From Fidelibacterota bacterium (GTDB lineage: Bacteria; Fidelibacterota; Fidelibacteria; Fidelibacterales; DSDE01): a stretch of 32,932 nt of DNA. Positions 1,724 to 30,371 of this stretch are shown piece after piece (within the stretch, counting starts at the first letter, position 1; every line of letters starts with the position of its first letter). Position numbers and translations under genes: made by a program. Under the pieces are notes generated by a model. It had not been told where the DNA came from and made no database searches. It saw only the letters and a list, made by a program, of their open reading frames with translations. The stretch spans positions 1-32,932 of the forward strand of contig DSDE01000470.1 in the NCBI GenBank assembly GCA_011049095.1. Direction: 5' to 3'.

Positions 1724-1803
1724 CTTTTCTCCATTTTCTATTCCCAAAGCCCAGCGATATGGGCTCCTTCGTCGCATTTCACAGGGTAACCTCAACCTTA
1801 ACC

Positions 1804-3654: not shown

Positions 3655-3689
3655 TAATACTCCTGACGCTTTTCTCTGCATATCTTAGA

Positions 3690-5927: not shown

Positions 5928-6031
5928 CTCTTTCCTTTCCTTCGAATGGTTATTTTGCGTAATCAATTATTCTGAGTCATCCTCACTAGACAATTGCCTT
6001 TTATTCCAAATTCTTTCATTGTATAAATAAA

Positions 6032-6165: not shown

Positions 6166-6252
6166 TAGTCAGAAAAGAGAAAAAGTTGTATTTTATGGTG
6201 AAAGGAAAACGTCGGAGAAGTGACGGTAAATAAAAAAGAAGAAAAGAATCCA

Positions 6253-7581
6253 ATGGTGCGAGAAGCACTAGAGCCGCTTGGGAATCGCTTCACAATCGTT
6301 TTCATTTTGGTTGTTACCGCGCTGATTATAACGTTTGTGATGTATATTTTGCCTCATCCGGCCAATGTATTTCAAAATGAAAAGCTTGTAAAACTTACCT
6401 ATGTGGACCATATTTCGCCGGCACATCAGCAGATTATAGATGATTTCAACCGGCAGCATAAGGGTAAAATTGAAGTTGTGCCTGTTAACTTGCCATTCTC
6501 AAAATTTACCACCAATGAGAGAAAGGAGCTTATAGCCCGGTCTTTGCGGAGCCACAGCAGCCGCATTGATATTTTTACGGTGGACCTTATCTGGGTGCCC
6601 CGCTTTGCCAAGTGGGCTGAGCCGCTGGACCGCTGGATTGAGCCAGTTCATTCAGGCAAAATTATGTCTCAGGCGCTGCAGAGCTGCTATCATAATAATC
6701 AGTTGGTTGGCTTGCCCCAATATCTGGATGTGGGAGCTATGTTTTTTCGGCGGGACCTTCTGGAAAAAATTCCTGATTCTCCTGAATTGATAAAAACATT
6801 ACGAAAAGGCATCAGTTGGGATGAGCTGCTGGCACTGAAAATCTATTTTCCCCAGAGCTATCTCTATAATTTTCAAGGGAAAGCCTACGAGGGATTGATG
6901 TGCAATTATGTTGAAATTATCCATAGCATGGGTGGCTATCTCCAGGAAGGAAAACACTTGGCGCTGAAGCATCCGATTCAGGAAGAAGCCCTGAGTTTTA
7001 TGAGGCAGCTAATCAAGGATCGTATTGTCCCTAAAGAGATAACAGGTTTTGATGAAAACCGCAGCTATGAATTTGCACTATTAAATGACATACCCTTTTT
7101 CCGGGGCTGGCCCAGTTTTCCAGAAGAATTTTTGAAAGATGCCCGCTTCAGTGCAAAAGTCCCTTTTCTGGAGCTGGCCCCGCTGCCACATTTTGAAGAA
7201 AAGACCTCCACATCAATCTTTGGCGGCTGGAATCTGATGATCAACCGTGATTGTAAAAATAAAGCAGAGGCGGTAACTTTTCTTAAATATATTACTGATT
7301 TGCCGGCTCAGCAGACACTATTTGTGAAGGGACGCTATCTGCCGGTAAATCGTGTTTTTTATGAGCGGGGCGGTGTTTCTATGGATAGCCGAAATGCTGA
7401 TGTGCTACTGCGTATGCTACAAAATGGCAGCTATCGACCCTCGTTGGAGGATTATACAAAAAACTCAGATATCATCAGCTTTTATCTTAATCGGGCGCTA
7501 AAGGGGGAGCTTGAGCCTTCTGAGGCCTTGGAGGGCGCTGAAAGCTTTATAAAAAGCGGGCAGGTGATTCCCTATCAATGA
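6253..7581 (+). CDS. Membrane-anchored extracellular solute-binding protein (sugar-type SBP family 1-like), orphan, likely sensory
   Basis: It has an N-terminal TM helix (FTIVFILVVTALIITFVMYIL) rather than a cleavable signal or lipobox. The SBP-like core is RIDIFTVDLIWVPRFAKWAEPLD ... FGGWNLMINRDCKNKAEAVTFLKY. No ABC permease or ATPase is present in the window. Its stop overlaps the kinase start (ATGA at 7578-7581). The start could be ATG 6253 or GTG 6220. Confidence 0.72.
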   Translation: MVREALEPLGNRFTIVFILVVTALIITFVMYILPHPANVFQNEKLVKLTYVDHISPAHQQIIDDFNRQHKGKIEVVPVNLPFSKFTTNERKELIARSLRSHSSRIDIFTVDLIWVPRFAKWAEPLDRWIEPVHSGKIMSQALQSCYHNNQLVGLPQYLDVGAMFFRRDLLEKIPDSPELIKTLRKGISWDELLALKIYFPQSYLYNFQGKAYEGLMCNYVEIIHSMGGYLQEGKHLALKHPIQEEALSFMRQLIKDRIVPKEITGFDENRSYEFALLNDIPFFRGWPSFPEEFLKDARFSAKVPFLELAPLPHFEEKTSTSIFGGWNLMINRDCKNKAEAVTFLKYITDLPAQQTLFVKGRYLPVNRVFYERGGVSMDSRNADVLLRMLQNGSYRPSLEDYTKNSDIISFYLNRALKGELEPSEALEGAESFIKSGQVIPYQ

Positions 7582-9038
7582 AGCGGCTCAAATCAAAAAT
7601 CGGTCAATATCATTTTGAATTGCGCCACTTGCTTGTGCTGGTGCTGGTTATCATCCTTTTTCAGATAATTCTCAGCTATATACATTCTATATCTGTACAG
7701 AATGTTATCTCTAAAACAATGGAGCTCTACCGGCAGGATTCGGCGGAGCGCATTGCCCATCAGACGGCTACAGCGCTGGAGGTTCTCCTGGACCAAAGTC
7801 TTTCCCAATCGGCGAACCGAACTCAGATTGTGCAGTCAATTAATATTATTCTCAGTCAGCAGCTCTTACAGAAAAATGTGGATGAAGTGGCGATTCTCGT
7901 AGAAAAAGAGCACGCTATACACATTCTCAATGATGGAGATACATTTTTTGATTACATTTTCCATCCGCATAAACCAATGCCCGCTATTCCGTCAGAATAT
8001 AAATCAATCGAGCGCTACTATTTGGAGAAGCGGGATGTGATTGTTCGTGATGAACAGATTATTACTCGTATTCAAGGCAGCCATGAATTTCATGTTCTTG
8101 TGCCTTTTGTGCCCAAGGGTGAATATATCGGCGCCCTATATATTAAAATGACACCTGATATTCGAGGTATTACAGAAGAAATATCCACCGTTTACAGCGA
8201 AAGCGGCGCCCTTTTTACGGCGCTGATTCTATTCGGCCTGCTGGCAATGTATTATATCAGCAGTTTTACTGTAAAAGAGCGGGACTATGCGATGACACTG
8301 CTTTTTCGGGAAAGAGAGGGGCAGATGCGGCAGCGGATTATTCACGAAAAGGAGAGTCAGTTTACCCGCCGTATCTATCATGCCCATCATAAAGCCGAAA
8401 AAATTATGGGTTTTATCAACGAAGAAATCCGAGCCCTCACGCGAGAAAATTTAGAAGCATTTAAATATAAAGTAAGCAAATATGCACGCTTTGTCAGTCG
8501 CGTCATATATGATATGAAAAGTGCAGACCCGCCTATTCACGCGATTCGCGGGCCAATGTTTCAGACGAATATCAATATGCTTATCAGTTTTTTAACAGAG
8601 CATATTTTCATGCGGGTTTTTGAGCAGCGGGCTACTTTTCGCTTTCAATTAGACCTGGATGCAAATTTCCCCATCGTTAATATCAATGAGTTTGTCATCT
8701 GGCAAATCTTGGAGCCGATTATTCAAAACAGTATTGATCATAACCCGCGTACAGAATTGTTAATTTCCATTAAAACTGATGCAGGCGCTGCTTGCGGGGC
8801 TGAGATAAGTATAGCTGATAATGGCCGAGGCATTGCGCCAGAGTTTTTAGAAAATGATCCCCAATCTGGCATTCAAAAACTTTTCAATGAGAATATTTCC
8901 AGCAAACCTAAGCCACAGGAAGCTGGCTATGGCTGTTATATTGCCTATGGGCTGGCTGCAAAACGCTGCGGATGGAAAATTAAGGCGCGAAACCTACCAG
9001 AAGGCGGCTGCCAGTTTATTATTTGTTTGTCTAAATAA
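7578..9038 (+). CDS. Sensor histidine kinase, two TM segments flanking a ~180-aa periplasmic domain, atypical dimerisation/His region
   Basis: TM1 is LLVLVLVIILFQIILSYI and TM2 is ALFTALILFGLLAMYYISSF. The HATPase_c motifs are an N-box (EPIIQNSIDHN), G1 (IADNGRGI) and G2-like (GYGCYIAYGLA). The putative phospho-acceptor region is His-rich (RRIYHAHHKAEKIMGFINEEIR) and does not match the classical HisKA H-box. Confidence 0.78.
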   Translation: MKRLKSKIGQYHFELRHLLVLVLVIILFQIILSYIHSISVQNVISKTMELYRQDSAERIAHQTATALEVLLDQSLSQSANRTQIVQSINIILSQQLLQKNVDEVAILVEKEHAIHILNDGDTFFDYIFHPHKPMPAIPSEYKSIERYYLEKRDVIVRDEQIITRIQGSHEFHVLVPFVPKGEYIGALYIKMTPDIRGITEEISTVYSESGALFTALILFGLLAMYYISSFTVKERDYAMTLLFREREGQMRQRIIHEKESQFTRRIYHAHHKAEKIMGFINEEIRALTRENLEAFKYKVSKYARFVSRVIYDMKSADPPIHAIRGPMFQTNINMLISFLTEHIFMRVFEQRATFRFQLDLDANFPIVNINEFVIWQILEPIIQNSIDHNPRTELLISIKTDAGAACGAEISIADNGRGIAPEFLENDPQSGIQKLFNENISSKPKPQEAGYGCYIAYGLAAKRCGWKIKARNLPEGGCQFIICLSK

Positions 9039-9049
9039 AGGAATTAAGC

Positions 9050-10495
9050 TTGAGCGAAGAAAGAATTATCAATGTGCTGCTTATTGAAGATGAAGTTTTT
9101 GATGTGCAGAGAGTCAAAAATACTGTAAAACAAGCGCCCTATATACATATTTTGCATGTGGTGCCAAACGGGAATGAAAGTCTGGATATTCTTAAAAAAT
9201 GCCCGATTGATGTGGTGATTATGGATTTTCAGATTGCCGGCGGACTGCAAGGTGAGTCATTGATTCAGGCTATCAAAACCATCAACAGCCAGCTTCAGAT
9301 AATTGTTATCACAAAAATGACTATCAACCAGACGGACTTTAAATTTGCCAATTCGCTTATTGAAGCCGGCGCCTATTGGTTTTGCACCAAATATCCCGGC
9401 GACATCGAGGACTATATCTACCAGCCCACCGATTTTGTTCTCAGCATCAAAAATGCCTGGGAAAAAAAGAAGCTGGAGGAGGCACGAAGCCTCTCAGAAA
9501 ATCGTCTCAATAAAAATATTCAGGCTGTTTTGAAGGATAAAAAAATTATTGGCGAATCCCTTGTTATTCAAAAGATGATTCAGCGCATACATAAATTTGC
9601 CGCCACTCAGGCCAGCGTTCTTATCACAGGCGCTTCTGGAACGGGCAAGGAGCTGGTGGCCACACATATCCATTACAAGAGCCCCCGTAAATATGAGCCA
9701 TTTGTGACTGTCAATTGCGGCGGAATTCCGTCAGAGCTCCTCGAGAGTGAACTTTTTGGCTTTGAGAAAGGGAGTTTTACCGGCGCTGGACATAGCCGGG
9801 AAGGACTTTTTGAGCAGGCCGACGGTGGCACGATTTTTCTCGATGAAATCGGCGAGCTGCCACTTAATGCCCAGTCCAAACTGCTGCGAGTGCTGCAGGA
9901 AGGGGAAATTGACAAAATCGGTCGCCGCAAGCAATATAAAGTAGATGTGCGGGTGATAGCTGCGAGCAATAAAAAGCTTGCCGAACAGGTTAAGAAAAAA
10001 GCTTTTCGGGAAGACCTTTTCTATCGTTTAAATGTGCTGCAAATTGAAGTTCCGCCCCTGGCTGAGCGGCTTGATGATATTCCACTGCTGGTCAGCCATT
10101 TTCTAAATATCTTTGCCGGTGACTTTTTGGAGAATCTGCCGGTTTTGACGGAAGAGAGCATCCAAATTCTCAAAAGCTTTCACTGGCCTGGTAATGTTCG
10201 TCAGCTTCAGAATGTGGTGCAGAGGATACTCTTTTCCTATGAAGATGAGATAACGCCGGAGACAGTGCGCATTGCTATCGGTGTACCAGAAAAAGAGAAC
10301 CATATCGCATCCTTTCGGGAACAGTTTAATCCTGCCAATATTCAGATGCTCCGAGATATAGAGTCCCATTTTCGTCGGGAATATATACAGTTTGTCCGTA
10401 GCCATAGTGACACCGATGCCGAGGCAGCTCGTAAGCTGGGTATAGCGCCGCCCAATTTTCACCGAATGTGCAAAGAGCTGGGTATCAAAGGCTGA
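9050..10495 (+). CDS. Sigma54-dependent response regulator (NtrC family: REC + AAA+ + Fis-type HTH)
   Basis: TTG start with an AAGGA SD. The REC domain has INVLLIEDE and DVVIMDFQ. The AAA+ domain has Walker A (GASGTGKE), Walker B (IFLDEIGEL) and the sigma54-contact loop ELFGFEKGSFTGA (GAFTGA variant). The C-terminal HTH is AARKLGIAPPNFHRMCKELGI. Confidence 0.9.
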   Translation: MSEERIINVLLIEDEVFDVQRVKNTVKQAPYIHILHVVPNGNESLDILKKCPIDVVIMDFQIAGGLQGESLIQAIKTINSQLQIIVITKMTINQTDFKFANSLIEAGAYWFCTKYPGDIEDYIYQPTDFVLSIKNAWEKKKLEEARSLSENRLNKNIQAVLKDKKIIGESLVIQKMIQRIHKFAATQASVLITGASGTGKELVATHIHYKSPRKYEPFVTVNCGGIPSELLESELFGFEKGSFTGAGHSREGLFEQADGGTIFLDEIGELPLNAQSKLLRVLQEGEIDKIGRRKQYKVDVRVIAASNKKLAEQVKKKAFREDLFYRLNVLQIEVPPLAERLDDIPLLVSHFLNIFAGDFLENLPVLTEESIQILKSFHWPGNVRQLQNVVQRILFSYEDEITPETVRIAIGVPEKENHIASFREQFNPANIQMLRDIESHFRREYIQFVRSHSDTDAEAARKLGIAPPNFHRMCKELGIKG

Positions 10496-10569: not shown

Positions 10570-11829
10570 TCAAAAATCTGCTCTGATTTTTGCGTAGAGC
10601 ATATCATTATAATCGTACTGGCCAAACATACCATTATCGCCGGTGAAAATATTTGCACCCAGCGTGAAGCCTAGTCCGTTTCCAAAATCATAGCCAATTT
10701 TGGGACGCAGCAGCGCATCACCATCATTTATCCCGATATAAGTGAACAGCTCCAGCGATAAGGTTTCACGAAAGAAAGTTTCCCGCAGCATCAAAGTAGC
10801 CATATATTCGTATTCTTCTTTCATTAGTGATTCATCGTAATCGAGTATGGCTTCCTGTATAATCTGAGTGCTCATGTCGATGCCCAGAAGATTGAGATCG
10901 AAGGCGATAAGGCTGTGAATATAGTTTTTTTCCAAGCTAATGGAGGGAAGCGGCTGGGCTGATTGTACCAGGCTTTGCAATTGGTCAGGGGACATTGCAA
11001 GCTGAAGCCGTTTTCCCATATAAAGGGCGCTTTCTCCACGTAAAACCCATCCGCTTATGGGTTTATTAAAAGCGAAGCCGCCAATAGCGAGTCGGTGATG
11101 CCGCGGTTGAAGGGTTAGCTCAGGCCCATCTTGTGTAAGCTGAAGCGATTTTAGAGCATAAACAGGGTTATCATCCCAGGCATAGCCACCAATTAACTCA
11201 AAGTCTATAGTCGAGCTCATTAAGGCATAGCGTCCAAATATTTCACTATTTTCCAGGGAAGGAGCAATATTTTCCTGGTCATAGTCTATGATTGGCTCCA
11301 CTGGAAAGGGTTTTGTCGGCGCCCAGATGCTGCCGTCTTCCGGAAATTTAGTCGCTGTAAATTGGGGTACCCACACAAGGTCTAATTGCCCGCTGCCGCG
11401 GTAAAAGCTCACTTTGGCAGAGGTTACGCCGGAGCGGATTTCCTCAAAATCACGCAACAGAAATTCTTCCAGATTTTTTGGTGAAATAATATCGGTGATG
11501 AATACACCATCGGCTTTTCCCCAGATGATTTGCTGATGACCAATTCGCAGGTCAAAATTCTCTCGGTAATAGTCAAGATAGAGCTGACGAATTCCTATTT
11601 TCAGACTGTCGCTGCTGTTATACTGGTAGATATAGGGATTGGCTTTCCAGGCAAATTTGCCGTTGCCGTCGCTTAGTTCCAGATTTAGAGTATTCTGCAG
11701 GACGGCCTGGCTGCCGTCGTTGATGAGCCAGCCGCTGTAATGGCGGGCATATCCATTCAGGGATGGCATAGCCCAAAGCGCTGCAAAACTGATAAGGCTA
11801 AGGCTTATTCCCTTTAGAAATTGATTCAT
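10570..11829 (-). CDS. Outer-membrane beta-barrel protein (DUF1302-like), module A
   Basis: Signal peptide MNQFLKGISLSLISFAALWA. The C-terminal ...YAKIRADF ends in an aromatic residue, as OMPs typically do. The motif LRIGHQQIIWGKADG..ITDIISP resembles the GRQ..WG motif of DUF1302 barrels. The start overlaps the upstream stop (ATGA at 11826-11829). Confidence 0.65.
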   Translation of the reverse strand: MNQFLKGISLSLISFAALWAMPSLNGYARHYSGWLINDGSQAVLQNTLNLELSDGNGKFAWKANPYIYQYNSSDSLKIGIRQLYLDYYRENFDLRIGHQQIIWGKADGVFITDIISPKNLEEFLLRDFEEIRSGVTSAKVSFYRGSGQLDLVWVPQFTATKFPEDGSIWAPTKPFPVEPIIDYDQENIAPSLENSEIFGRYALMSSTIDFELIGGYAWDDNPVYALKSLQLTQDGPELTLQPRHHRLAIGGFAFNKPISGWVLRGESALYMGKRLQLAMSPDQLQSLVQSAQPLPSISLEKNYIHSLIAFDLNLLGIDMSTQIIQEAILDYDESLMKEEYEYMATLMLRETFFRETLSLELFTYIGINDGDALLRPKIGYDFGNGLGFTLGANIFTGDNGMFGQYDYNDMLYAKIRADF

Positions 11830-12593
11830 CGCACACCTCGTTGCATCATCCGTTCAGTAAAGATCCCGTCATCTACCGCTTGGTTAATCTTAATATTTTT
11901 CATTTCTATTCGAGTGCGGTGATCTTTTTGAACATTGTGCATTTCCATTATGGGGATAACCCAGTAACCGCTGATCTGTTCATATTTTTGAATATTCAGA
12001 GTTTTAAGATGTTCGCCATCCTCGTCATAAAATTCTTTTTTCAGGCCAATCCATTTATCTTTGATAATCCAGGTGATTGTATGGCTGTACATATTGTCAT
12101 CATCTTTGGGTCTGCTTTCGATGACGTAGCAATTTTCTCCATTCAGAGTTTCTTCCCGAAGGATTTTGTGATCATCTTTATCAGGATGCCGTTCGCCCAG
12201 GTCATCATAGGTAAAGTCACTTCCCATAAAATAATCGCTTTTGCTGTCAGAGGCGATGCGCTTAACTTTTTTTAGCGCCGGAAGATAAATCCACTGATCA
12301 TCATCCTGGCCTGAATCATAGCTCCAGTTCATAAAACTGGTATTACGCACATCGGCTGGCGCTTTGAAAAACATTATTTTTTTCTCATGGTCGCCGAAGT
12401 CTTTAAGAAATTGCTGTATCGTTCTTTCTCGTAGGTCTCCACGGCTATTGGTGAGGCTCATTGTGAGGTCAGATAGAATAGTTTGACCGGTGGGGCGCTC
12501 ATAGACTTTCATCATAATGCTGTGGCCATCGGGATTTTGTGCCCATAGATTGAGGGCTAAAAATATCGTCAGGCCAATGATTCGCTTTTTCAT
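11826..12593 (-). CDS. Secreted LolA-like protein (outer membrane lipoprotein-sorting protein family), module A
   Basis: Signal peptide MKKRIIGLTIFLALNLWA with no Cys, so it is soluble and periplasmic. Family hallmarks are WIYLPALKKVKRI and FMGSDFTYDDLG. Overlaps the MMPL-A stop (ATGA at 12590-12593). Confidence 0.8.
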   Translation of the reverse strand: MKKRIIGLTIFLALNLWAQNPDGHSIMMKVYERPTGQTILSDLTMSLTNSRGDLRERTIQQFLKDFGDHEKKIMFFKAPADVRNTSFMNWSYDSGQDDDQWIYLPALKKVKRIASDSKSDYFMGSDFTYDDLGERHPDKDDHKILREETLNGENCYVIESRPKDDDNMYSHTITWIIKDKWIGLKKEFYDEDGEHLKTLNIQKYEQISGYWVIPIMEMHNVQKDHRTRIEMKNIKINQAVDDGIFTERMMQRGVR

Positions 12594-14929
12594 TTTATCT
12601 CCTTTCTGTTTGTGAGTTCAGCAGATTCTTGTTCTGAAATCTGCTTTGTTTTGTTTTCATAATATTTTCGCAGCAATATATAGAGGACGCTCATTGTCGC
12701 CAGAAAACTCACCAGCATATTCAGTGAAATAAGCGCTCCTAAAGTGCGGTTAGGCGGAAAAACAGAAGCCAGCAGCACCATAAAGCCGGCGATGACCACC
12801 AAAGCATTGAATAAAATAGCGCGTCCGCTGCTGACCATTGTCTGCAGGCTGACCCATGGCAGATTTTTATTTTTTTCAAAAAATTTGCGGTATTTATCAA
12901 TAAAATGTACGGCATAATCAATGCCTATTCCCACAGCTATACTGGAAATCAGTGCGGTGGTGGTGCTAAGCGGTATATTTAAGAAGCCCATGACACCAAA
13001 GCTGATGATGGATGTGATGATGATGGGCAAAGCTCCCAGCAGGCCGATGGCGATGCTGCGAAACATCAGCGCCAGCAGTATAATCACAATTAAAACTGAG
13101 ATTAGCAGAGAGCTGATTTGTCCCTTGAGGATTAAATCGGTAAAAACATAGGCTTTATACCCTGAACCAGCATAATTAAGCTCGATATTCAGCGCGGCAA
13201 AGTCGCTGTGAAAGCTCTCAACACTCTCCATAGCCTGCTCCAGAGCTTTGCTGTTGTCGCTTTTTAGCTGAAATGTGATATTGGCTTTGGCATAATTATA
13301 GTCCACTAGTTTCCAGAGCTTATCCGGATCGCCGCTCATCTCATAAAGCAGCAGATATTGGGCAATCATATCTGATGACTCGGGAATTGTCTCCCAGGCT
13401 GGGTCGTCTGCATGCATGACCTTATTCATCCGTTTAAGATAGTCACTCAGCGAGAAACTGCTGCCTACCAGCGGGTTACGGCTTTCAGTGCTAGTCTGCA
13501 TCTTTTCCATAAGCAGCAGGGTGGCCGGCTGTTTCATAGCCTCAGGGCTTCCCTCAAGAATAACATTCAGGGTGCTGGTGCCTCCAAAGTGCTGGTTAAT
13601 AAAGGCATCTGTCTGAACGATATTGCTGTCTTTTTCAAACTTATCCAGAAAAGAGCTGTCAATCCAGATTCTTGATGCACCGTAAAAAGCAATCAGCAGG
13701 ATAACTGTAATGCTCATCATTATCAAAACCCGGTGAGAGGGCAGCCATTCGGTGAGATTGATAAGCCACGGAGCGCTTTTTTCACTATAGTCTTCGTCTT
13801 TTTTGGAATGTGTCGTTTTCCGGCTTCCAAAAAGCAAAATGCTGGCAGATAAAAAGAGAAGTGAAAGCAAGAGTTCTACAAATACCCCAAATGCCGTGAA
13901 AATCCCAAAATATTTGATGGGATAGACTTGTGAGCTAATGAGGGAGAAAAAACCTACCATCGTCGTAAAGGCCGCCATACTAACCGGGCTGACCATTGCG
14001 GTAATCATTGCGCTTACAGCCTGTTTTTTATCGTAATCAGGCTTATCCCGTCGAATGAGATTATAACTGTTTAACAAGTGGATGCCATAGGCTACACCAA
14101 TGGCGATAAGCATGACAGGTATCATTGTGCTGACTGAATAAAGCGGGATTCCAAGCCAACCCATCAGACCAAAAGTCCACACCGAGCTAAAAACCACGCT
14201 GAGCAAGATGAGCAAAGAGCCGATGAAACTGCGCAACAGCAGCAGTAAAACCACAAAGATGACAGCCACCACCAGCGGAACCATTTTTTTCATATCGGCA
14301 GGCATAAGCTTTGCGAGAGTCCCTTCAACGATTGGCGAGCCAGCTATGTACAACTTCTCGGGGCCTTCAAAGCTTTTTACCAGTGTGAGCAGCTCCTCAT
14401 AAAAAGCCTCGCTGAAAACATCGTCATTGATTTGAGCGATGATGAGCGCAGTGCGGCCATCTTTGCTCACTATGCGACTGTGAACCATTTCATTGGATTC
14501 TACGCTTTGCCGCAATTCCTGAAGCTTGATCTCACTTTTAGGAATCTTTTTGTAAAAAGCATTCACCTCCAGGCTGCCATCATTGCCCACAATATTGTCA
14601 GCCGTGTATAGCGATGTCACATCAGCAGGCTCGATCTGCTCCATCTTCTGCAGTGCACGGGTCAAATCTTTGATTTTTTCCAATGTTACACTGTTGTAAA
14701 TATTTTCCGGCGCTTCTATAGCGATAATAATTCCGTCCTTGATATTAAACCAGCTTTCGGCTTCTTCACTATACATAAAAGCCGGATGGGATTTGGGCAT
14801 GTACTCATCCAGGTCGGTCTCCATCCGAATATTTTCCTTCATTTGATAAAAGAAAAATGCGCTCACCGCCAAGGTCACAATGAGAATGCTCATCGGATAC
14901 TTTAGCAGGCCATTTAAATACTTGTTCAT
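12590..14929 (-). CDS. MMPL / RND-superfamily inner-membrane transporter (HpnN/MmpL-like), module A, 779 aa
   Basis: Two repeats, each of one TM helix, a large periplasmic loop and a five-TM bundle. The second-half motif is GIGIDYAVH and the first-half counterpart is AIGVAYGIH. An AGGAGA SD precedes the ATG at 14927-14929. Confidence 0.9.
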   Translation of the reverse strand: MNKYLNGLLKYPMSILIVTLAVSAFFFYQMKENIRMETDLDEYMPKSHPAFMYSEEAESWFNIKDGIIIAIEAPENIYNSVTLEKIKDLTRALQKMEQIEPADVTSLYTADNIVGNDGSLEVNAFYKKIPKSEIKLQELRQSVESNEMVHSRIVSKDGRTALIIAQINDDVFSEAFYEELLTLVKSFEGPEKLYIAGSPIVEGTLAKLMPADMKKMVPLVVAVIFVVLLLLLRSFIGSLLILLSVVFSSVWTFGLMGWLGIPLYSVSTMIPVMLIAIGVAYGIHLLNSYNLIRRDKPDYDKKQAVSAMITAMVSPVSMAAFTTMVGFFSLISSQVYPIKYFGIFTAFGVFVELLLSLLFLSASILLFGSRKTTHSKKDEDYSEKSAPWLINLTEWLPSHRVLIMMSITVILLIAFYGASRIWIDSSFLDKFEKDSNIVQTDAFINQHFGGTSTLNVILEGSPEAMKQPATLLLMEKMQTSTESRNPLVGSSFSLSDYLKRMNKVMHADDPAWETIPESSDMIAQYLLLYEMSGDPDKLWKLVDYNYAKANITFQLKSDNSKALEQAMESVESFHSDFAALNIELNYAGSGYKAYVFTDLILKGQISSLLISVLIVIILLALMFRSIAIGLLGALPIIITSIISFGVMGFLNIPLSTTTALISSIAVGIGIDYAVHFIDKYRKFFEKNKNLPWVSLQTMVSSGRAILFNALVVIAGFMVLLASVFPPNRTLGALISLNMLVSFLATMSVLYILLRKYYENKTKQISEQESAELTNRKEIK

Positions 14930-14945
14930 TTTGTCTCCTATATTT

Positions 14946-14961
14946 GTTATCGTTAGCTAAC
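14946..14961. promoter_or_regulatory. Operator-like palindrome GTTATCGTTAGCTAAC (GTTA-N8-TAAC) between tetR-A and MMPL-A
   Basis: Contains the perfect 10-bp palindrome GTTAGCTAAC. It matches the inverted reading of the site at 15575-15590 (GTTATCGGTCGTTAAC) at 13 of 16 positions. Confidence 0.4.
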
Positions 14962-14980: not shown

Positions 14981-15562
14981 TTACTTAATCATCTGTTTTA
15001 GGGTGAGGATAATTGCCCGTACGCGGCTGATCATGTCAAAGCGAAAGCCAAGCCGCCGCCATTCGGAAACGATTTTGTGAATCAGTCCAACGATGATTAA
15101 AACCAAATCTGCTGCCGGAAGCTCTTGGCGAATCTGAGCTTCTGCCTGGGCCGCTTCAATAAGTCCTTGCAGATAGTTTTGACGCCGCAGAATAATCTCC
15201 TGCAGTTTTGCTGCGGCTGCTGAATCCGGCGGAAAGATTTCATCGTTGAAAAGAACGGCTGTCATCTCTTGATTTTTTTCTAGATATTGAACCATTCGAA
15301 TGATGAATTGATAGAGCCGCTCATCTGCCCTGGCAATCTTGTCCAGCTCCTGTTTCATATTTAAAAATTGATCGGATAAAGTGTCGAGAATGGCAAATAT
15401 AATAGCTTCTTTATTCTGAAAATGGCGGTAGATGGCCGGTTCGCTGATACCCACATTTTTTGCTAGCTCCCGAATCGAAAGATTGCTGTAGCCGCGAAAA
15501 TGAATGATGCGTAGCGCCTCCTGCCTTATCTGTTTCTGCCGTTCTTCACTTGTTCGTCGCAT
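14981..15562 (-). CDS. TetR/AcrR family transcriptional regulator, module A
   Basis: ORF trimmed to the ATG at 15560-15562, which has a GGAGG SD. The TetR_N HTH is GYSNLSIRELAKNVGISEPAIYRHFQNKEAI. Confidence 0.9.
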   Translation of the reverse strand: MRRTSEERQKQIRQEALRIIHFRGYSNLSIRELAKNVGISEPAIYRHFQNKEAIIFAILDTLSDQFLNMKQELDKIARADERLYQFIIRMVQYLEKNQEMTAVLFNDEIFPPDSAAAAKLQEIILRRQNYLQGLIEAAQAEAQIRQELPAADLVLIIVGLIHKIVSEWRRLGFRFDMISRVRAIILTLKQMIK

Positions 15563-15574
15563 TTTACCTCCACA

Positions 15575-15619
15575 GTTAACGACCGATAACATAATACGAA
15601 ATTTATTTTCTCTTTGCAA
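15575..15619 (-). promoter_or_regulatory. tetR-A sigma70-type promoter with overlapping operator-like palindrome
   Basis: The minus strand reads TTGCAA (15614-15619), a 17-nt spacer, TATTAT (15591-15596), then immediately GTTATCGGTCGTTAAC (15575-15590). The imperfect palindrome GTTA-N8-TAAC therefore covers the expected transcription start. Confidence 0.5.
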
Positions 15620-15680: not shown

Positions 15681-16151
15681 ATGAAGCGAGAAAAATTTCT
15701 GGAGATTTTGAGCTGGGAGCATCATGATGGCCTGGTGATTGCGCTGCGTCTGGAAAAAGGGCTGGAGAATGGCACCGAGTTGTGGCTTCTCAAAGATTAT
15801 TTGCTGGATAAATGGAATCATGCGCTGAAAGACCATTTTCAAAGTGAAGAGCGCTATCTCATTCAACCGGCGCAATATTATGAGCCCGATTCTGCGCCCA
15901 TTCAGAAGATGATGCAGCAGCATGAAGTGATAACAAAGCTGGTGGAAACGATTTTAGATAAGGCAAACAAAGCGAACATTGAGAAATTCATAGCCGCCCT
16001 GCGGCAGCATATTCAGTTTGAGGAAAAAGAGCTCTTTCCCTATCTTGAATCGCTCCTGGAACCCGAGCTAAAGGATAAAATCGCCCAATGCCTCAGCATT
16101 CATTATGTAAAAGGTGATAAGGGTTGGGACCCTGAGTTCTGGAAAACGTAA
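15681..16151 (+). CDS. Hemerythrin-like (HHE cation-binding domain-like) protein
   Basis: Helical His/Glu pattern: WEHHDG, DHFQSEERYL, QQHEVI, RQHIQFEEKELFPYLE. No signal peptide. SD-like AAAGGGAAA upstream. Confidence 0.55.
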   Translation: MKREKFLEILSWEHHDGLVIALRLEKGLENGTELWLLKDYLLDKWNHALKDHFQSEERYLIQPAQYYEPDSAPIQKMMQQHEVITKLVETILDKANKANIEKFIAALRQHIQFEEKELFPYLESLLEPELKDKIAQCLSIHYVKGDKGWDPEFWKT

Positions 16152-16241: not shown

Positions 16242-16298
16242 ATTGATTTTGTTATAATCAATAAGCTGAATCATAATAAACAGTTAGACGACTGTTTA
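16242..16298 (+). promoter_or_regulatory. Extended -10-like element inside an inverted repeat, followed by a second inverted repeat
   Basis: TGTTATAAT (16250-16258) lies inside the IR ATTGATT (16242-16248) / AATCAAT (16256-16262). It is followed by an 8-bp IR TAAACAGT (16277-16284) / ACTGTTTA (16291-16298) with a 6-nt spacer. Confidence 0.3.
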
Positions 16299-16324: not shown

Positions 16325-16371
16325 TTGAAAAGGCTGAAGATAATCTATATATTATGACTGACCAGTCGGTC
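16325..16371 (+). promoter_or_regulatory. tetR-B sigma70-type promoter with overlapping palindromes
   Basis: TTGAAA (16325-16330), a 17-nt spacer, TATATT (16348-16353). These are followed by GACTG-AC-CAGTC (16356-16367) overlapping GACC-AGTC-GGTC (16360-16371), just upstream of the GAGGAGGAG SD. Confidence 0.5.
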
Positions 16372-16391: not shown

Positions 16392-17015
16392 ATGACACCC
16401 ATAGCAAAAGATGCACAGAAACGGGAGCGGATCATTGCGGCAGCGATGGAGGTTTTTGCCGCTGAGGGTCTGAGCAAAGGAACCATTGCCTCGGTGGCTT
16501 CCCGGGCCGGCATTGGCAAAGGGACCGTTTATGAGTATTTCCGCAGCAAGGATGAGCTTTTTCAGGCTATGCTGGAATACTTTTTCGCTGGAATGATAGC
16601 GCAGTGGGAAGCGCTTATTCAGAGTCCATTGGCCTATAAAGATAAGCTGAATCTTCTCATAGACAGTACTTTCGACTTTATGGATTTTGACAACCTCCAA
16701 GCCATGAGTACCTGGCGAATGGTTTTTGAGATTATTCTCTATGCACTGCGGCAGCCGGAAGGGGGAGAGAGCGCCATTAACCTGGCAGAAAGTTTCCGGT
16801 CGCTCATCAGCGCCTTTGAGCCGCTGCTGGCTGAAGGAGTGGAGCGGGGACTCATTAAGCCTATGGAGACCCGCGATCTGGCTTTTCTCCTTTTTGCGGC
16901 GCTGGATGGGGTGGGACTCCATTTTTTCCTGCAAAAGGGAAATTATGATGCTGGCAGACTGAAGTCGTTGCTGAGGCAAATATTGGTTACCGGAATCTTT
17001 AAGGAGGCTTTGTAA
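16392..17015 (+). CDS. TetR/AcrR family transcriptional regulator, module B
   Basis: The TetR_N HTH is GLSKGTIASVASRAGIGKGTVYEYFRSKDELF. Strong SD. The stop overlaps the next start (TAATG at 17013-17017). Confidence 0.9.
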   Translation: MTPIAKDAQKRERIIAAAMEVFAAEGLSKGTIASVASRAGIGKGTVYEYFRSKDELFQAMLEYFFAGMIAQWEALIQSPLAYKDKLNLLIDSTFDFMDFDNLQAMSTWRMVFEIILYALRQPEGGESAINLAESFRSLISAFEPLLAEGVERGLIKPMETRDLAFLLFAALDGVGLHFFLQKGNYDAGRLKSLLRQILVTGIFKEAL

Positions 17016-17818
17016 TGAAAACAAACTGTATCAACAGAGAAAAACTTGTGGGCATTCCTTTGGGCAGAATAATATTACTCCTTTTTTTTGTTTGGGCAGC
17101 GATTCCGGGACAGCTTCAAGGCGCTGAACCAGATGCAGCGGCTCTTTTAGACCATGTGATATTCACAATGAATCCGGAAAATGTCAAGGCCATCATGACC
17201 CAGACCATTACGAGCAGCTCCGGCGACGAGCGGACATTTCGCTACGAAAGTGAGAGCGGCGGCGCGGGGGAGTTTTCGCTGATGCGCTATTTGGAGCCAA
17301 GCCGGGTGAAAGGGAATGCCCTGCTGCTGACCGATTTTACAGATAATATCTGGAGCTACAATGCTCGCACAAACCGTGTGCGGCGACTGGCCAGCAATGC
17401 CAAAAAGATGAAATTTGAAGGAAGCGATTTCACCTATGAAGATATGGGCAGCGCTAAAGTCTGGAAAGAAGATTTTACGGTCTCGATGGGTGAAAAAGAC
17501 AGACTTCAGTCTGAACTCTGTCAGCAGCTCATTTTGCAGCCCAAAGCCCGTGCCAATTCCAGCTATTCAAAAATTATTCTATGGCTTCGGGAAACTGATC
17601 ATTTTCCTATCCAACTCGATTATTATGACAAAAATGAGACTTTCCTCAAAAGCCTATATCTTGAAGATATTCGCTTGGTAGAAGGTGTTTTAACGCCATT
17701 TACTATGAGAATGCATCATCATCTGGAAAACAGTGAGACAGTGATGGGCTATGAGTCGGTGACCTATGATGTGAATTTCCCCAAAAATTATTTCAGAGAG
17801 GGGAATCTGAAAAAATGA
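17015..17818 (+). CDS. Secreted LolA-like protein, module B
   Basis: AAGGAGG SD. Signal peptide ...IILLLFFVWAAIPGQLQGA with no Cys. Family hallmark FEGSDFTYEDMG. Confidence 0.8.
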   Translation: MKTNCINREKLVGIPLGRIILLLFFVWAAIPGQLQGAEPDAAALLDHVIFTMNPENVKAIMTQTITSSSGDERTFRYESESGGAGEFSLMRYLEPSRVKGNALLLTDFTDNIWSYNARTNRVRRLASNAKKMKFEGSDFTYEDMGSAKVWKEDFTVSMGEKDRLQSELCQQLILQPKARANSSYSKIILWLRETDHFPIQLDYYDKNETFLKSLYLEDIRLVEGVLTPFTMRMHHHLENSETVMGYESVTYDVNFPKNYFREGNLKK

Positions 17819-19194
17819 AGAAAGTCAAAATGAGACATAAAATACCAACCGGTGAAAAGAGGAGCCTTTTAAGGAAGGAGCAGATTTTGTCTGCTGTAAA
17901 AGTATTCCTCCGTTTTCACTATTTTGCTAAAAATCCCGCCGCAGCCACCCTGCCCATCTTCTTGCTATTCATAAATACTCTGCTTTTCCCAACGCTGCTC
18001 AAAGCTGATTGCTTTGGCTATTTTGAAAGTGAAGGCGACGGTCTGCAGTCAAAATCGAGTGAATATCTCTTTGGTTACCATAAGCTGCGTCTCGATTTTC
18101 AGACTCAGCCTGAAGCAAACCTAAAAATAAGCGCCAACCTGACAGCCAAAAAATATTGGGGCAAGCGCACCATGAATCTAATGGATTTTTTGCCTGATAA
18201 ACTGCTTGAGCCTTTTCTTAACAGTTCATTTATGTATCCTGGCGAGCCTTTATCTTTTACTATGGCTGATACGATTTATCTGGATAACTTTTATCTCGAC
18301 GCCTATGCGGGAAATCTTCATTTAACTTTGGGAAGGCAGCAAATTTCTCCCGGTGTGGGCTATGCCTGGAATCCAACAGACATTTTTAACCGCAAGGACC
18401 CGATGGACCCCACCTATGAGCAGTCCGGCGCAGATGCCATCGCTTTGGAATTGCCTGTTGGAGCGTATCTGACGCTTAGTGCGATACTCCAGCCAAAAGA
18501 GAGCTGGGATACGACAGTTCGATATGGAAAAGGAAAATTCAGTTTTAGCGCTTTTGATTTTAGTTTGGTCTATGGCTATTTTCAGCGTTTATTTACCCAT
18601 CTGGAATGGCCGCTCATTTTTATGGGAATGACGGAATCAGTTCAAAACCGCGAATTGCTGGGTTTTTCATTTTTCACGGACCTTGCCGGACTGGGGTTTT
18701 GGCTTGAAGCAGCCCGCTGCTATAATCGTCTTGCTGGGTATCAATATTTTGATTTTTCCGACGCCAATCGGTTTTATGAAGACCCATATCTGGCAAATGA
18801 CGGCCACTATTGGCAGCTCCTTATTGGCGCTGATTATACCAGCAATTCCTCCTTGCATATCCTGGCCGAGTATTTTTACAATGGATTTGGCAGTAAGAAA
18901 GACCAAGTTAATTTCAATCACTACCTGGACTATCTTGACGGCAAAACACTTACTTTGAACCAGAATTATCTATTTTTGTCGTTGCTTTATCCATGGGGCG
19001 ATTCTGTGACGGCTGGAATTTTTACTTTGGCGAATCTGGATGATCAAAGCTTTTTGCTAAATCCTCAATTGATATTTCAATCTGGAAACAATCTGGAGCT
19101 GAGTTTGATGCTATCCGCCGGATTGGGTAATGCTGAAAGCGAAATGGGGCTGCAAAAATACGGCGGCAGACTAAGGCTAAGAGCATGGTTTTGA
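17815..19194 (+). CDS. Outer-membrane beta-barrel protein (DUF1302-like), module B
   Basis: ATGA overlap with the upstream gene. Hydrophobic signal region LPIFLLFINTLLFPTLLKA. Motif LTLGRQQISPGVGYAWNPTDIFN. The C-terminal ...RLRLRAWF ends in an aromatic residue. The exact start is uncertain because the N-terminal region is long. Confidence 0.65.
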   Translation: MKKVKMRHKIPTGEKRSLLRKEQILSAVKVFLRFHYFAKNPAAATLPIFLLFINTLLFPTLLKADCFGYFESEGDGLQSKSSEYLFGYHKLRLDFQTQPEANLKISANLTAKKYWGKRTMNLMDFLPDKLLEPFLNSSFMYPGEPLSFTMADTIYLDNFYLDAYAGNLHLTLGRQQISPGVGYAWNPTDIFNRKDPMDPTYEQSGADAIALELPVGAYLTLSAILQPKESWDTTVRYGKGKFSFSAFDFSLVYGYFQRLFTHLEWPLIFMGMTESVQNRELLGFSFFTDLAGLGFWLEAARCYNRLAGYQYFDFSDANRFYEDPYLANDGHYWQLLIGADYTSNSSLHILAEYFYNGFGSKKDQVNFNHYLDYLDGKTLTLNQNYLFLSLLYPWGDSVTAGIFTLANLDDQSFLLNPQLIFQSGNNLELSLMLSAGLGNAESEMGLQKYGGRLRLRAWF

Positions 19195-19244
19195 CGGAGT
19201 GATGGGAATCATTAAAATTCTTCAATAAAAAAAAGGAGGCGCTA

Positions 19245-21992
19245 ATGCGTGAAAAATTTTTACGGACTATTGGCAAAATAGCAGCAGAGCATACCTGGAA
19301 ACTAAGTGGACTGATTTTGATGCTGACAATATTTTTTGGTGCAATGGCTGGGCAACTAAAAATGAATATGAATTTGACGGGACTGCTGCCCCAGGATGAT
19401 CCTATGGTTGAGGAATTCAATAAAATTTACCATCATTTTGATGGCGCAAATACGGTATTCATCGTGGTGAAGGGCGATACTAAGAAAATGATTGCCTATG
19501 CCGAGCGTATTTCTCCGATAATTTTGGAGCTGGAATCATGGATCGAATCCAATGGATCCGAGCAGGTGAAAGAGTCGCATTTTAAACTGCAGTCCAGCGC
19601 TGCCGAGAAGGGCAGAAAAGCTTATTATCAGCGGGTTGATTATAAGCAAGCCGTTGATTTTATAAAAAATCATGGCCTGATGCTCATACCTGAGGAAGAA
19701 TTGACGAATATTGAAGAGCTGTTTTATGATTCCAATCTTTTACCTTTTTTAATCAATCTGAATAATAGCTTGGAAAAAGAGTATATTCAATCAAATATCA
19801 AACTCAGTACTATGCAGAAAGAGCGCAATGCCGTGGCTTTTCTTGATGGTATCGAGAGCTTTACTGAAGCTTTGCAGCAAAGCCTTGTTTCGGAGAAAGA
19901 CTTTGAGGACAATGCCATTGCAGCAGCCGATGCTATCACCCTTGGCAGCCCCTATCTGATGTCACCGGACCGTTCGATGCTCCTGGTGATGGCCACACCC
20001 AATTTCAATATCATGAATATGGACTACTATACCCCGGCTATCACCGGGCTTGAGGAACTGGTAAAATCTCTTGCTTCGGATATGGAGCTTGAGGCAGGCT
20101 TAACCGGAAGTATTGTACTGAGTCGGGATGAGATGGCGGCCAGCACAGAAGATTCCATGACTTTGACGCTTCTGGCGCTGCTGGCTGTATTTATTATGTT
20201 TGTCATCACTTTTAGAATGCTATCGGCGCCGCTGCTGGCCATAATCAATCTGATTATCGGTATAGTCTGGGCAATGGGTGTTAGCTGGTTTTTGGTGGAT
20301 AGCCTGAACATGTTTACAGCAATGATGGCGGTGATTCTGGTGGGGCTGGGGATTGATTTTTCCATTCATATCATTTCAGTTTATTCGGAATTACTGTTAA
20401 AGGGTGAATCGCCTCACGATGCCATCATCAATACGCTGGAAAAAGTCGGCACCGGCATAATTACTGGCGCTATTACCACAGCTATGGCTTTTCTCACGCT
20501 GCTTATTGCCCGCTCTGCCGGCATCAAGGAATTTGGTCTAGTCAATGGCGTGGGGCTGATCGTGATTATGATGGCCACACTATTGACGATGCCAACGCTC
20601 CTGATGCTGCGGGAAAAATATCGTCTGTGGCGGGGAAAAGAACAAAATCGCTATCGTGACCTCAGTTTTCAGTCGGTGGGCGCTTTGTCGCTGTGGATTC
20701 ATTCCCACCGAAAATTCAGTTTTCTATTCATTGTTTTGATCACGCTGGGCCTTGGGGCTTTTATTCCCAGCTTGACGATGGATTATAATTATCTCAATAT
20801 GGAGCCGAAAGGACTGGAGTCTATACTTCTCAATGAAGAGATTATTGAGAAATTTAATATGAGCAGCGATATGACTATGATGACAGCTTCATCTCTGGCA
20901 GAAAATGCTGCCCTGACCGAAGCCGCCAAGAAGAAATCCTCCATTTCTTTTGTAGAATCAATTAGCGATTATATTCCCGATGAAAAGAGCCAAGAAAAAC
21001 GGCGGGAGAAAGTTTCTGTTTTGCGTGAAAAGATGGCCTCAGCTCAAACGGGCGCTGAAATGAAGCCAAACGAGCGGATACTTTTTTGGGATGAGCTGAT
21101 TCGCCTGGAAGCCAATATTATCGAGCTGCAAGATATGGCTTTTCTCGGCGGGCAGGATATGGTAGATGAAAAAGCGAGCCGTCTGGTGGGTAATCCGGAC
21201 CGACCCGAGCTGCAAGGCATACTGACTGCCCTTATTGCAAGTCTGGAAGGGGACATTCCCCTTAAAAAAATCAATGCATTTAACAAGGTTTTCAGTGAGC
21301 ACTACCGGAAAAATGTTATCAAAATGGCTAATCCGGAAACGATTAGCCTAGAGATGCTGCCAGAAATCATTCATGATAAATATATCAGTGAAGATGACAA
21401 AAGCTATCTGCTGACCCTCTATCCTAAAGGAAATGTCTGGCATTTTGATTATCTGGAAGCCTTTACCAATGATGTTTTAGATATCAGTCACAGCATCGTG
21501 GGTACGCCGCCTATGTTTTATTTTCTGCTGAAAATCATTGGCGAAGATGGCAAGCGGGCGCTCTTTTTTACAATTTTGGTGGTTTTCCTGACGCTGCTCA
21601 TTGATTTTCGGTCGCTGCGCTTTGCCCTTTTTGCTATGATGCCCCTCTTTTTTGGGTTCATCTGGATGACGGGCTTTATGGCGTTGACTGGCATTCAGCT
21701 AACCCTTTTGAATATCATCGCGCTGCCGCTGATCGTAGGCATTGGCATTGATGATGGAGTCCATATTATCCATCGCTACCGGTTGGAAGGGGAAGCCGCC
21801 ATCGGATCGGTATTTGCTTCTACTGGAAAAGCGGTAATAATCACGTCATTTACTACGATGCTGAGCTTTGGCAGTCTGGTTTTTGCCACCTATCGTGGAT
21901 TTGGCAGCATGGGCCTGGCGCTTTTTATAGGCGTGGGAATGTGTCTGCTGGCCAGCCTGATAGTCTTGCCGGCGCTCTTGAAACGGGTATGA
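19245..21992 (+). CDS. MMPL / RND-superfamily inner-membrane transporter, module B, 915 aa
   Basis: AAGGAGG SD. 12-TM RND-like topology with two large periplasmic loops. The motifs are GLGIDFSIH in the first half and GIGIDDGVH in the second half. Confidence 0.9.
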   Translation: MREKFLRTIGKIAAEHTWKLSGLILMLTIFFGAMAGQLKMNMNLTGLLPQDDPMVEEFNKIYHHFDGANTVFIVVKGDTKKMIAYAERISPIILELESWIESNGSEQVKESHFKLQSSAAEKGRKAYYQRVDYKQAVDFIKNHGLMLIPEEELTNIEELFYDSNLLPFLINLNNSLEKEYIQSNIKLSTMQKERNAVAFLDGIESFTEALQQSLVSEKDFEDNAIAAADAITLGSPYLMSPDRSMLLVMATPNFNIMNMDYYTPAITGLEELVKSLASDMELEAGLTGSIVLSRDEMAASTEDSMTLTLLALLAVFIMFVITFRMLSAPLLAIINLIIGIVWAMGVSWFLVDSLNMFTAMMAVILVGLGIDFSIHIISVYSELLLKGESPHDAIINTLEKVGTGIITGAITTAMAFLTLLIARSAGIKEFGLVNGVGLIVIMMATLLTMPTLLMLREKYRLWRGKEQNRYRDLSFQSVGALSLWIHSHRKFSFLFIVLITLGLGAFIPSLTMDYNYLNMEPKGLESILLNEEIIEKFNMSSDMTMMTASSLAENAALTEAAKKKSSISFVESISDYIPDEKSQEKRREKVSVLREKMASAQTGAEMKPNERILFWDELIRLEANIIELQDMAFLGGQDMVDEKASRLVGNPDRPELQGILTALIASLEGDIPLKKINAFNKVFSEHYRKNVIKMANPETISLEMLPEIIHDKYISEDDKSYLLTLYPKGNVWHFDYLEAFTNDVLDISHSIVGTPPMFYFLLKIIGEDGKRALFFTILVVFLTLLIDFRSLRFALFAMMPLFFGFIWMTGFMALTGIQLTLLNIIALPLIVGIGIDDGVHIIHRYRLEGEAAIGSVFASTGKAVIITSFTTMLSFGSLVFATYRGFGSMGLALFIGVGMCLLASLIVLPALLKRV

Positions 21993-23406: not shown

Positions 23407-23414
23407 AATTTTCC

Positions 23415-28346: not shown

Positions 28347-28440
28347 CTTTTGTCTCCTCATCATCGTTCCAAGATAAGTGCTTTTTCTAAATTTTCCCAA
28401 TAAAATTGAATTCCTTGCAGGCTTTTCTCGTTTGTGACGC

Positions 28441-30370: not shown

Positions 30371-30371
30371 A

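Follow-up and report, generated by a model that had tools for sequence, protein, structure and literature searches.

Few routes are known by which hydrophobic molecules cross the periplasm of diderm bacteria (Lol, Lpt, Mla and TolC-based efflux). A stretch of 32,932 nt from a Fidelibacterota bacterium (contig DSDE01000470.1; in the following the window, to whose positions all coordinates refer) raises the question of what two neighbouring gene modules might contribute to this traffic, each of which encodes an MMPL-type pump of the RND superfamily, a secreted LolA-like protein, an outer-membrane β-barrel and a TetR-family regulator. The two modules are instances of a known, widespread envelope transport cassette, of which module 2 is the more divergent representative, and the architecture is not new. 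With moderate confidence, each of them is read here as a TetR-controlled export route that draws on the proton-motive force (PMF) and would lead a hydrophobic or amphipathic cargo from the pump to the LolA-fold acceptor and further to the barrel.

Two modules of matching composition

Module 1 (10570-14929, minus strand) comprises the genes of the pump RND1, a LolA-like protein and barrel1, which overlap by 4 nt at both junctions. In module 2 (16392-21992), the overlap is 1 nt between tetR2 and the LolA-like gene and 4 nt between the latter and the gene of barrel2; overlaps of 1-4 nt between partner genes at most junctions suggest operons. The two modules are divergent, with a hemerythrin-domain gene between them (Table 1). 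The positions of the open reading frames (ORFs) given in an earlier note on this DNA, which had been made from the sequence alone, all match the ORF list. Two genes probably start downstream of their ORF calls: the likely start of tetR1 is the ATG at 15562, which is preceded by GGAGG, and barrel2 probably begins well downstream of 17815, because its homologues are only ~390 aa long. Among the start codons listed for barrel2, a TTG at 17887 with AAGGAG upstream is an alternative.

The pumps

RND1 and RND2 are members of the MMPL family of the RND superfamily. Both match the Pfam model PF03176 (gathering threshold 20.5) in two stretches, RND1 at 1.3e-48 (166 bits) and RND2 at 6e-43 (147.5 bits), and a crude hydropathy analysis reveals in both a single transmembrane (TM) helix, 190-260 residues of periplasmic loop and a TM bundle, a pattern that occurs twice in succession. 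The family match and the doubled pattern confirm the designation as MMPL-type pumps in the earlier note. In a PDB search, MmpL4/5, HpnN, Dispatched and NPC1 are the closest solved structures; RND2 matches the HpnN structure 5KHN at 6e-36. Among the NCBIfam families, the best one for RND1 is HAE3 (TIGR00921; 5e-79, 266 bits), for which RND2 scores 211.5 bits, both under the curated cut-off of 351.9. RND2 can be aligned from one end to the other with HpnN (TIGR03480; 364.6 bits, under the cut-off of 751.85) and with BstA (226 bits, likewise below the curated cut-off), and it reaches 207.5 bits with the HpnN model NF052374, under the cut-off of 1100. Judged by these scores, the pumps are HAE3/HpnN-like and no certified members of either family. 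Family scans of the window ORFs showed no hopanoid biosynthesis genes.

The motif GxGIDxxxH had been attributed to each pump. This is correct for RND2, which contains both copies (GLGIDFSIH and GIGIDDGVH), and in part for RND1, which has one (GIGIDYAVH at residue 667, in the C-terminal half); the copy in its N-terminal half, at residue ~277, is a degenerate AIGVAYGIH with Asp replaced by Ala. With the motif restricted to the C-terminal half, pumps of the module-1 family may relay protons asymmetrically.

The LolA-like proteins

Both LolA-like proteins match the Pfam family PF17131 (LolA_like; threshold 30) across nearly its entire length of 184 positions: the module-1 protein at 1.1e-67 (227.7 bits, profile positions 2-184) and the module-2 protein at 1.5e-44 (152.3 bits, positions 5-184). 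They exceed the Pfam threshold of DUF1329 as well, over ~65 residues only. The current Pfam name of PF17131 is TP_0789-like, and a literature search on TP0789 returned one proteomics paper without functional information. The module-1 protein matches the structure of LolA3 from Porphyromonas gingivalis (PDB 9TP6) at 2.6e-62, with 45% identity over 232 residues, and further the structures 3BK5 and 4Z48; for the module-2 protein, 4Z48, 3BK5 and 9TP6 are found at about 1e-16 to 1e-18. The leaders of both proteins are of the signal peptidase I type, and none of 70 orthologue N-termini contains a lipobox; in view of these two features, the proteins should be soluble in the periplasm. The earlier description as a secreted LolA-like protein without a lipobox Cys is thus borne out.

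A canonical Lol function was considered and rejected. No LolA Pfam family matches the LolA-like proteins of the window at E ≤ 0.01, and for the NCBIfam family LolA1_Flavo, the score of 17.7 bits falls short of the cut-off of 100. The crystal structure of the P. gingivalis protein (LolA3-PG; 9TP6, published in 2026) displays a hydrophobic groove, the hallmark residues of LolA (Arg) and LolB (Leu) are absent from it, and its binding of LolB is very weak.

The outer-membrane barrels

By their signal peptide, their predicted barrel structure and their C-terminal Phe, the third components of the modules (ORFs of 419 and 459 aa) are outer-membrane β-barrels. The AlphaFold2 (AF2) model of barrel1, computed from a 62-sequence alignment (pLDDT 89, pTM 0.83), consists of about 20 strands that follow an N-terminal helix, and in Foldseek it matches best to MOMP, OccD/OprD, AlgE and chitoporin, at TM-scores of about 0.5. 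The model confirms a fold class, that of generic 16-18-stranded barrels, and does not single out a functional analogue. Nothing meaningful came from a PDB sequence search with the profile of the barrel, and only the fold comparison placed the protein. Barrel2 is modelled as a barrel, too (pLDDT 84, pTM 0.78), with AlgE as the best Foldseek match. Both models and Foldseek therefore confirm what the earlier note had supposed for these two proteins.

For barrel1, the resemblance to DUF1302 turned out to be stronger than had been claimed. The window copy of barrel1 stays just below the gathering threshold of the Pfam family PF06980 (18.4 bits, E 1.2e-3; threshold 23.2), and all but one of its 62 close homologues match the family at E ≤ 1e-3, the best one at 3.6e-16; the more than 1100 homologues of barrel1 are pre-annotated as DUF1302 nearly throughout. 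Barrel2 has no Pfam match. According to hhalign, it is related to the barrel1 family over almost its full length (98.5%, E 1.6e-15); its homologues stem mostly from Marinimicrobia, and its family comprises 4458 cluster representatives at E ≤ 1e-3. Both barrels thus appear to be peripheral or divergent DUF1302 relatives.

Both barrels terminate in Phe, a residue that is conserved or invariant in their families, and no lipobox occurs in 79 barrel N-termini. The GxQQI motif, which had already been noticed in the window proteins, proved to be invariant in both families. In barrel1 it opens the most conserved segment, GxQQIxWGKADGVFITDIxSPxDLxEFLL (residues 97-125), between strands 5 and 6. From the strand order and the usual topology of outer-membrane proteins, this segment would be extracellular loop 3 and fold inward; in porins, it is loop 3 that bends into the lumen.

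No membrane-fusion protein or TolC channel in cis

Canonical HAE1 pumps (AcrAB-TolC, CusCBA) share with the cassette an RND pump, an outer-membrane exit protein and a local TetR-type repressor. In contrast to them, the cassette possesses neither a membrane-fusion protein (MFP) nor a TolC-type trimeric channel in cis, and its exit protein is a porin-like barrel of the monomeric type. Among the window ORFs of at least 120 aa that were scanned, none has a HlyD or OEP Pfam match, and phmmer searches with AcrA, CusB, TolC and CusC of Escherichia coli found nothing in window ORFs of at least 80 aa. The same phmmer searches were extended to the ORFs of at least 80 aa in 86 related loci (1.17 Mb of neighbourhoods), in which no OEP was detected and the only MFP match was a fragment at the outermost end of a single locus. 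Single E. coli seeds have a limited reach in phmmer; in the same run, an AcrB seed picked up distant MMPL pumps. Within this scope, the statement that MFP and TolC are missing alongside the pumps stands, for the window by both Pfam and phmmer and, as regards OEP, for the 86 loci. Neither a HlyD-family MFP nor an OEP/TolC channel, the components that define a tripartite pump of the HAE1 type, was found in cis.

Conservation and co-divergence of the parts

About 185,000 species-representative genomes were scanned, in which at least 554 loci with a relative of barrel1 were found; the best 80, from independent genomes, were kept. The order TetR-RND-LolA-like-barrel recurs in almost every one of these loci that has enough upstream DNA, and the TetR gene precedes the pump gene in most homologous loci. 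The loci sampled belong to Bacteroidales, Calditrichota (including Caldithrix abyssi), KSB1, Marinimicrobia and Cloacimonadota, and further ones to Aminicenantes, Latescibacterota, Zixibacteria, Krumholzibacteria and others. In a KSB1 locus (L026), both modules are adjacent as in the window; the gene order of module 2 is kept in Marinimicrobia contigs, and the position of tetR2 is matched in L081-L086 and L026. Outside the four core genes, the neighbours are highly variable (427 clusters from 571 ORFs). The tight linkage of pump, LolA-like protein and barrel, which the earlier note had read from the window, hence extends across the recovered phyla.

Each of the three structural components of module 1 is ~25% identical to its counterpart in module 2 (26% for the LolA-like pair). 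The modules are ancient paralogues, the parts of which have diverged together as sets, and such co-divergence of all three parts is what is expected of proteins that need to recognize each other. A recent tandem duplication of the cassette was rejected on account of the low identity. Both the conserved order across phyla and the divergence in step in two paralogous modules argue against mere adjacency of the genes, according to which the LolA-like protein and the barrel would, for instance, serve lipoprotein sorting or general porin function. The very weak LolB binding of LolA3-PG, the lack of a canonical LolA match in Pfam or NCBIfam and the existence of a natural fusion of an MMPL protein with a LolA-like protein speak against it, too, and we regard it as very improbable.

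Known relatives of the cassette

The novelty that had been ascribed to the gene trio is overstated, as the gene set has been described as a unit before. It is known from a proteobacterial cofitness study, from AmeABCD and from the P. gingivalis operon PG1178-PG1181. Price et al. (2016) reported cofitness, of a pleiotropic kind, of genes for DUF1302, DUF1329, BNR/COG4447 and COG1033 RND proteins and proposed that these export an envelope component. In Castellaniella defragrans, deletion of the distantly related AmeABCD lowers monoterpene tolerance and raises the accumulation of Nile Red (Puentes-Cala and Harder, 2018); according to the same authors, the AmeABCD lineage differs from other HAE3 pumps in having partners in the periplasm and the outer membrane. 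As growth substrates, alkanes, fatty esters, phenanthrene and benzene induce related clusters or require them. A Thalassolituus protein is the natural fusion of MMPL and LolA-like parts mentioned above, with a porin-like gene as neighbour. An AlphaFold-multimer model of a DUF1302-DUF1329 complex with an ipTM of 0.84 was published in 2026, in a paper which also states that no structure or direct functional characterization of DUF1302 exists. In the literature consulted, it still holds, as the earlier note had put it, that substrate and mechanism of the gene trio have not been established.

The modules of the window have in common with the AmeABCD-type cassette (DUF1302-DUF1329-BNR-RND) an HAE3-like RND pump, a periplasmic protein of the LolA superfamily, a DUF1302-like barrel and the lack of HlyD and TolC. 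The AmeABCD-type cassette has been proposed to act as one exporter, and the LolA-like proteins of the window also reach DUF1329. The two types differ in size and regulation: the LolA-fold protein of the window is of the PF17131 type with ~255 aa, compared with the DUF1329 type of ~450 aa, the barrel has ~415 instead of ~600 aa, and the regulator belongs to the TetR instead of the LuxR family. No BNR/Ycf48-like fourth protein was found among the window ORFs scanned. With neither the BNR/COG4447 protein nor the long DUF1329 protein of the AmeABCD type, the window modules represent a reduced variant.

Closest to module 1 is PG1178-PG1181. Both share the order TetR, MMPL and LolA-like, followed by a downstream gene annotated as hypothetical or 'porin', their LolA-like proteins are related as closely as the match to 9TP6 indicates, and neither an MFP nor an outer-membrane factor (OMF) has been described in the operon. 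Gene order, annotation and the match to LolA3 suggest the equivalence. Adjacent ABC ATPase genes are lacking in the window, and P. gingivalis is an oral pathogen, whereas the organism of the window is apparently a cellulolytic environmental bacterium of the FCB group. PG1178-PG1181 are induced 13-136-fold by iron depletion, rank with the genes that an excess of haemin represses most strongly, are up-regulated in a hemH mutant and lie within the network of nitric oxide (NO) stress and CdhR; in haem or iron limitation and in the hemH mutant, PG1178-80 are co-induced with the haem uptake system Hmu. The P. gingivalis papers call PG1178-81 an 'uncharacterized transport system'. A PG1178-81 mutant was described by Boutrin et al. 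(2016), as cited in PMC11018363, and PG1181 is reported to influence hcp as well as PG1236, a gene for a hemerythrin-domain protein.

HpnN and MmpL3/4/5 belong to the same transporter superfamily and have the same overall topology, and RND2 aligns with HpnN over its full length. Differences to HpnN are the scores of the window pumps, far below the HpnN equivalog cut-offs, and the partners, since HpnN is reported to function without co-transcribed periplasmic or outer-membrane proteins; the partners of mycobacterial MmpLs are MmpS or other proteins and not ones of the LolA fold. With the Lol pathway (LolCDE-LolA-LolB), the modules share a soluble LolA-fold protein in the periplasm, which shields hydrophobic groups, and the hand-over between the membranes. 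Here, however, the energy would be provided by an RND pump and the PMF instead of an ABC transporter, and the acceptor would be a barrel instead of LolB.

Direction of transport and cargo

The components could facilitate export in the following manner: Driven by the proton gradient, the MMPL-type pump would lift the cargo from the inner membrane into its periplasmic domains. The secreted LolA-fold protein would take the cargo into its hydrophobic half-barrel and may be docked at the periplasmic mouth of the barrel. The DUF1302-like barrel, predicted to have 18-20 strands, would then move the cargo into the outer membrane or to its far side. What the TetR protein senses is probably the cargo or a signal related to it, and it would thereby derepress its own operon. 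Characterised MMPL/HAE-type RND proteins such as HpnN, MmpL3 and MmpL4/5 move lipids or lipophilic molecules outward. We infer the direction of transport, the contacts and the nature of the cargo from the behaviour of these related RND proteins, from the AmeABCD phenotypes, from the natural fusion and from the published multimer prediction. As to the LolA-fold protein, the multimer prediction, the fusion and the translational coupling incline us to a docked adaptor rather than a free shuttle. Considering the induction of the Bacteroidota operon, the cargo may be tied to the physiology of iron or haem starvation and NO stress.

Several points weigh against export by such a self-contained route. 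Deletion of lolA3 in Flavobacterium johnsoniae had no phenotype in the assays used. The negative result for MFP and OMF covers the 33-kb window, and such a pair could be encoded elsewhere in the genome. The proteobacterial relatives are often linked to growth on hydrophobic substrates, which fits uptake as well as efflux, and the P. gingivalis operon is induced together with uptake systems in haem and iron starvation, unlike a simple detoxifying efflux pump. The latter two lead to the opposite direction: barrel and LolA-like protein could import a hydrophobic compound that serves as nutrient or cofactor, such as a long-chain hydrocarbon or ester or, in Bacteroidota, a haem- or porphyrin-like molecule, which the RND protein would insert into the inner membrane or remove from it. 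In favour of such a route are relatives that C28 alkane, fatty esters, monoterpenes, phenanthrene and benzene induce or that growth on these compounds requires, and the co-induction of PG1178-80 with Hmu. No import is known for any of the RND-superfamily proteins recovered here; their characterised relatives all export. The phenotype of the AmeABCD deletion, which is partly rescued by acetate and accompanied by increased dye accumulation, indicates efflux or tolerance. Uptake is considered unlikely, and export remains the preferred direction.

Regulation and stress-gene context

A 16-bp palindromic site, GTTAnCGnnnnnTAAC (pattern GTTANCGNNNNNTAAC), occurs in only two copies in the window, one upstream of RND1 and the other in the divergent intergenic region of tetR1 and the hemerythrin-domain gene (Table 1), where it adjoins a promoter-like site (15619-15591). 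The pattern was chosen after the sequence had been seen, and the palindromes are suggestive as candidate operators of TetR1; the two copies could tie the hemerythrin gene to module 1. Upstream of tetR2, there are the palindromes AAACAGT-N6-ACTGTTT (16278-16297) and GACTG-AC-CAGTC (16356-16367), the second of which adjoins a promoter-like TTGAAA/TATATT; both are possible TetR2 operators. A promoter and terminator scan of the window yielded nothing reliable above the shuffled background.

The hemerythrin-domain protein is a possible regulon partner of the modules. With a profile hidden Markov model built from three seeds, hemerythrin-domain genes were detected in 9 of the 80 homologous loci and also near relatives of module 2; tblastn with the hemerythrin of the window found one locus only. 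Hybrid-cluster protein (Hcp) is encoded in four of the 80 loci and a flavodiiron-type protein in two. In one locus (L030), the stretch between the TetR gene and the pump contains genes for a 4Fe-4S protein, Hcp, a cupin, a hemerythrin and a flavodiiron-like protein. These stress genes at the cassettes echo the P. gingivalis regulon, in which PG1181 is linked to hcp and PG1236, and they are a lead only, their counts being taken within the 80 loci and any enrichment being suggestive. Relatives with linked hemerythrin, Hcp and ABC-ATPase genes likewise recall the P. gingivalis locus; ABC ATPases are present in eight of the 80 loci, and DUF2147 proteins also in eight. In 12-18 of the 80 loci (including L005, L010, L019, L020, L028, L051, L061, L063, L075, L076 and L078), a Cupin_2 protein of ~112 aa has its gene between those of the TetR regulator and the pump; the window lacks it.

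In Bacteroidales, an outer-membrane protein of ~300 aa with a weak match to phospholipase A1 (PLA1; 4.4e-4, below the Pfam threshold) accompanies the cassette (17 of the 80 loci), and five of these 17 loci (L004, L006, L009, L012 and L022) have a calcineurin-like metallophosphoesterase gene between the LolA-like and barrel genes. Cassettes of Bacteroidales also encode a 211-aa protein without family. The PLA1-like protein and the metallophosphoesterase, the similarity of RND2 to HpnN and the pleiotropic cofitness of the four proteobacterial genes are compatible with a role in envelope remodelling as proposed by Price et al., in which the trio would move one of the bacterium's own outer-membrane lipids or lipid-derived components to the outer membrane, either as a housekeeping or as a stress-responsive system. 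TetR control and strong stress induction are at odds with constitutive biogenesis, however, many diderm lineages lack the gene set, which in the window occurs in two diverged copies, and the PLA1 assignment does not reach the Pfam threshold. We consider envelope remodelling, like uptake, improbable compared with the export of a hydrophobic cargo.

Genes surrounding the modules

The regions 656-5966 and 25851-28400 contain genes for the degradation of plant polysaccharides, among them GH5 cellulases, one of which carries CBM6/CBM35 modules and a C-terminal sorting domain for type IX secretion (T9SS), a GH3 β-glucosidase and a fusion of a GH9 cellulase with a polysaccharide deacetylase. This gene set suggests a cellulolytic organism of the FCB group. 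Convergent with the end of module 1, consecutive genes at 6220-10495 code for a solute-binding protein, a histidine kinase and a sigma-54-dependent response regulator. On the other side, a cluster convergent with RND2 (22016-23418) consists of a GTP cyclohydrolase I gene and two tandem, slightly overlapping 6-pyruvoyl-tetrahydropterin synthase paralogues and is a pterin or queuosine precursor cluster. A gene for a MotA/ExbB-type proton channel, followed by two MotB/OmpA-like genes, is located at 29684-31887.

Table 1. Coordinates of the modules, their regulators, candidate operators and associated genes (window positions unless a locus is given)
Feature	Position	Strand	Basis or remark
barrel1, outer-membrane β-barrel, short DUF1302-like, 419 aa	10570..11829	-	signal peptide, C-terminal Phe, AF2, Foldseek
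LolA_like / TP_0789-like secreted protein, module 1, 255 aa	11826..12593	-	PF17131
RND1, MMPL/HAE3-like inner-membrane pump, 779 aa	12590..14929	-	PF03176, TM pattern
candidate TetR operator GTTATCGTTAGCTAAC	14946..14961		17-32 nt upstream of RND1 start codon
tetR1, TetR-family regulator of module 1	14981..15619	-	TetR_N at 1.8e-13
candidate operator, second copy GTTAACGACCGATAAC	15575..15590		divergent tetR1-hemerythrin intergenic region
hemerythrin-domain gene, between modules	15681..16151	+	PF01814 at 4.2e-12
tetR2, TetR-family regulator of module 2	16392..17015	+	TetR_N at 2.1e-16
LolA_like protein, module 2, 267 aa	17015..17818	+	PF17131
barrel2, outer-membrane barrel, 459-aa ORF, distant DUF1302-like	17815..19194	+	AF2, hhalign; no Pfam match
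RND2, HpnN-like MMPL pump, 915 aa	19245..21992	+	PF03176
hemerythrin/Hcp/flavodiiron/4Fe-4S contexts in related loci	L030:1367-6145, L026:5660-7324, L043:13493-15100, L051:643-2034		

Implications

The cassette adds no new kind of system, and a specialist will not be surprised by its architecture. Its distribution (at least 554 of the ~185,000 species-representative genomes) and the standing of PG1178-81 among the P. gingivalis operons most strongly regulated by iron or haem give it weight. Hemerythrin, Hcp, flavodiiron and cupin genes lie in or beside the cassette in some loci of several lineages, and PG1178-81 is strongly induced when iron or haem is limiting; on these grounds it is conceivable, as a tentative proposal of rather low probability, that the cassette is a distinct outer-membrane trafficking route beside Lol, Lpt and Mla, in which a LolA-fold protein would carry a cargo other than lipoproteins from the PMF-driven pump to its dedicated barrel. 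In FCB-group bacteria it would, as part of a conserved iron, haem and nitrosative stress programme, export or reposition a lipophilic molecule that is required in such stress. The two co-diverged modules, which lie side by side under their own regulators, are evidence for partner-specific sets and provide a natural pair for specificity swaps. Together with the association of the cassette with stress genes across phyla, these paired modules constitute usable leads.

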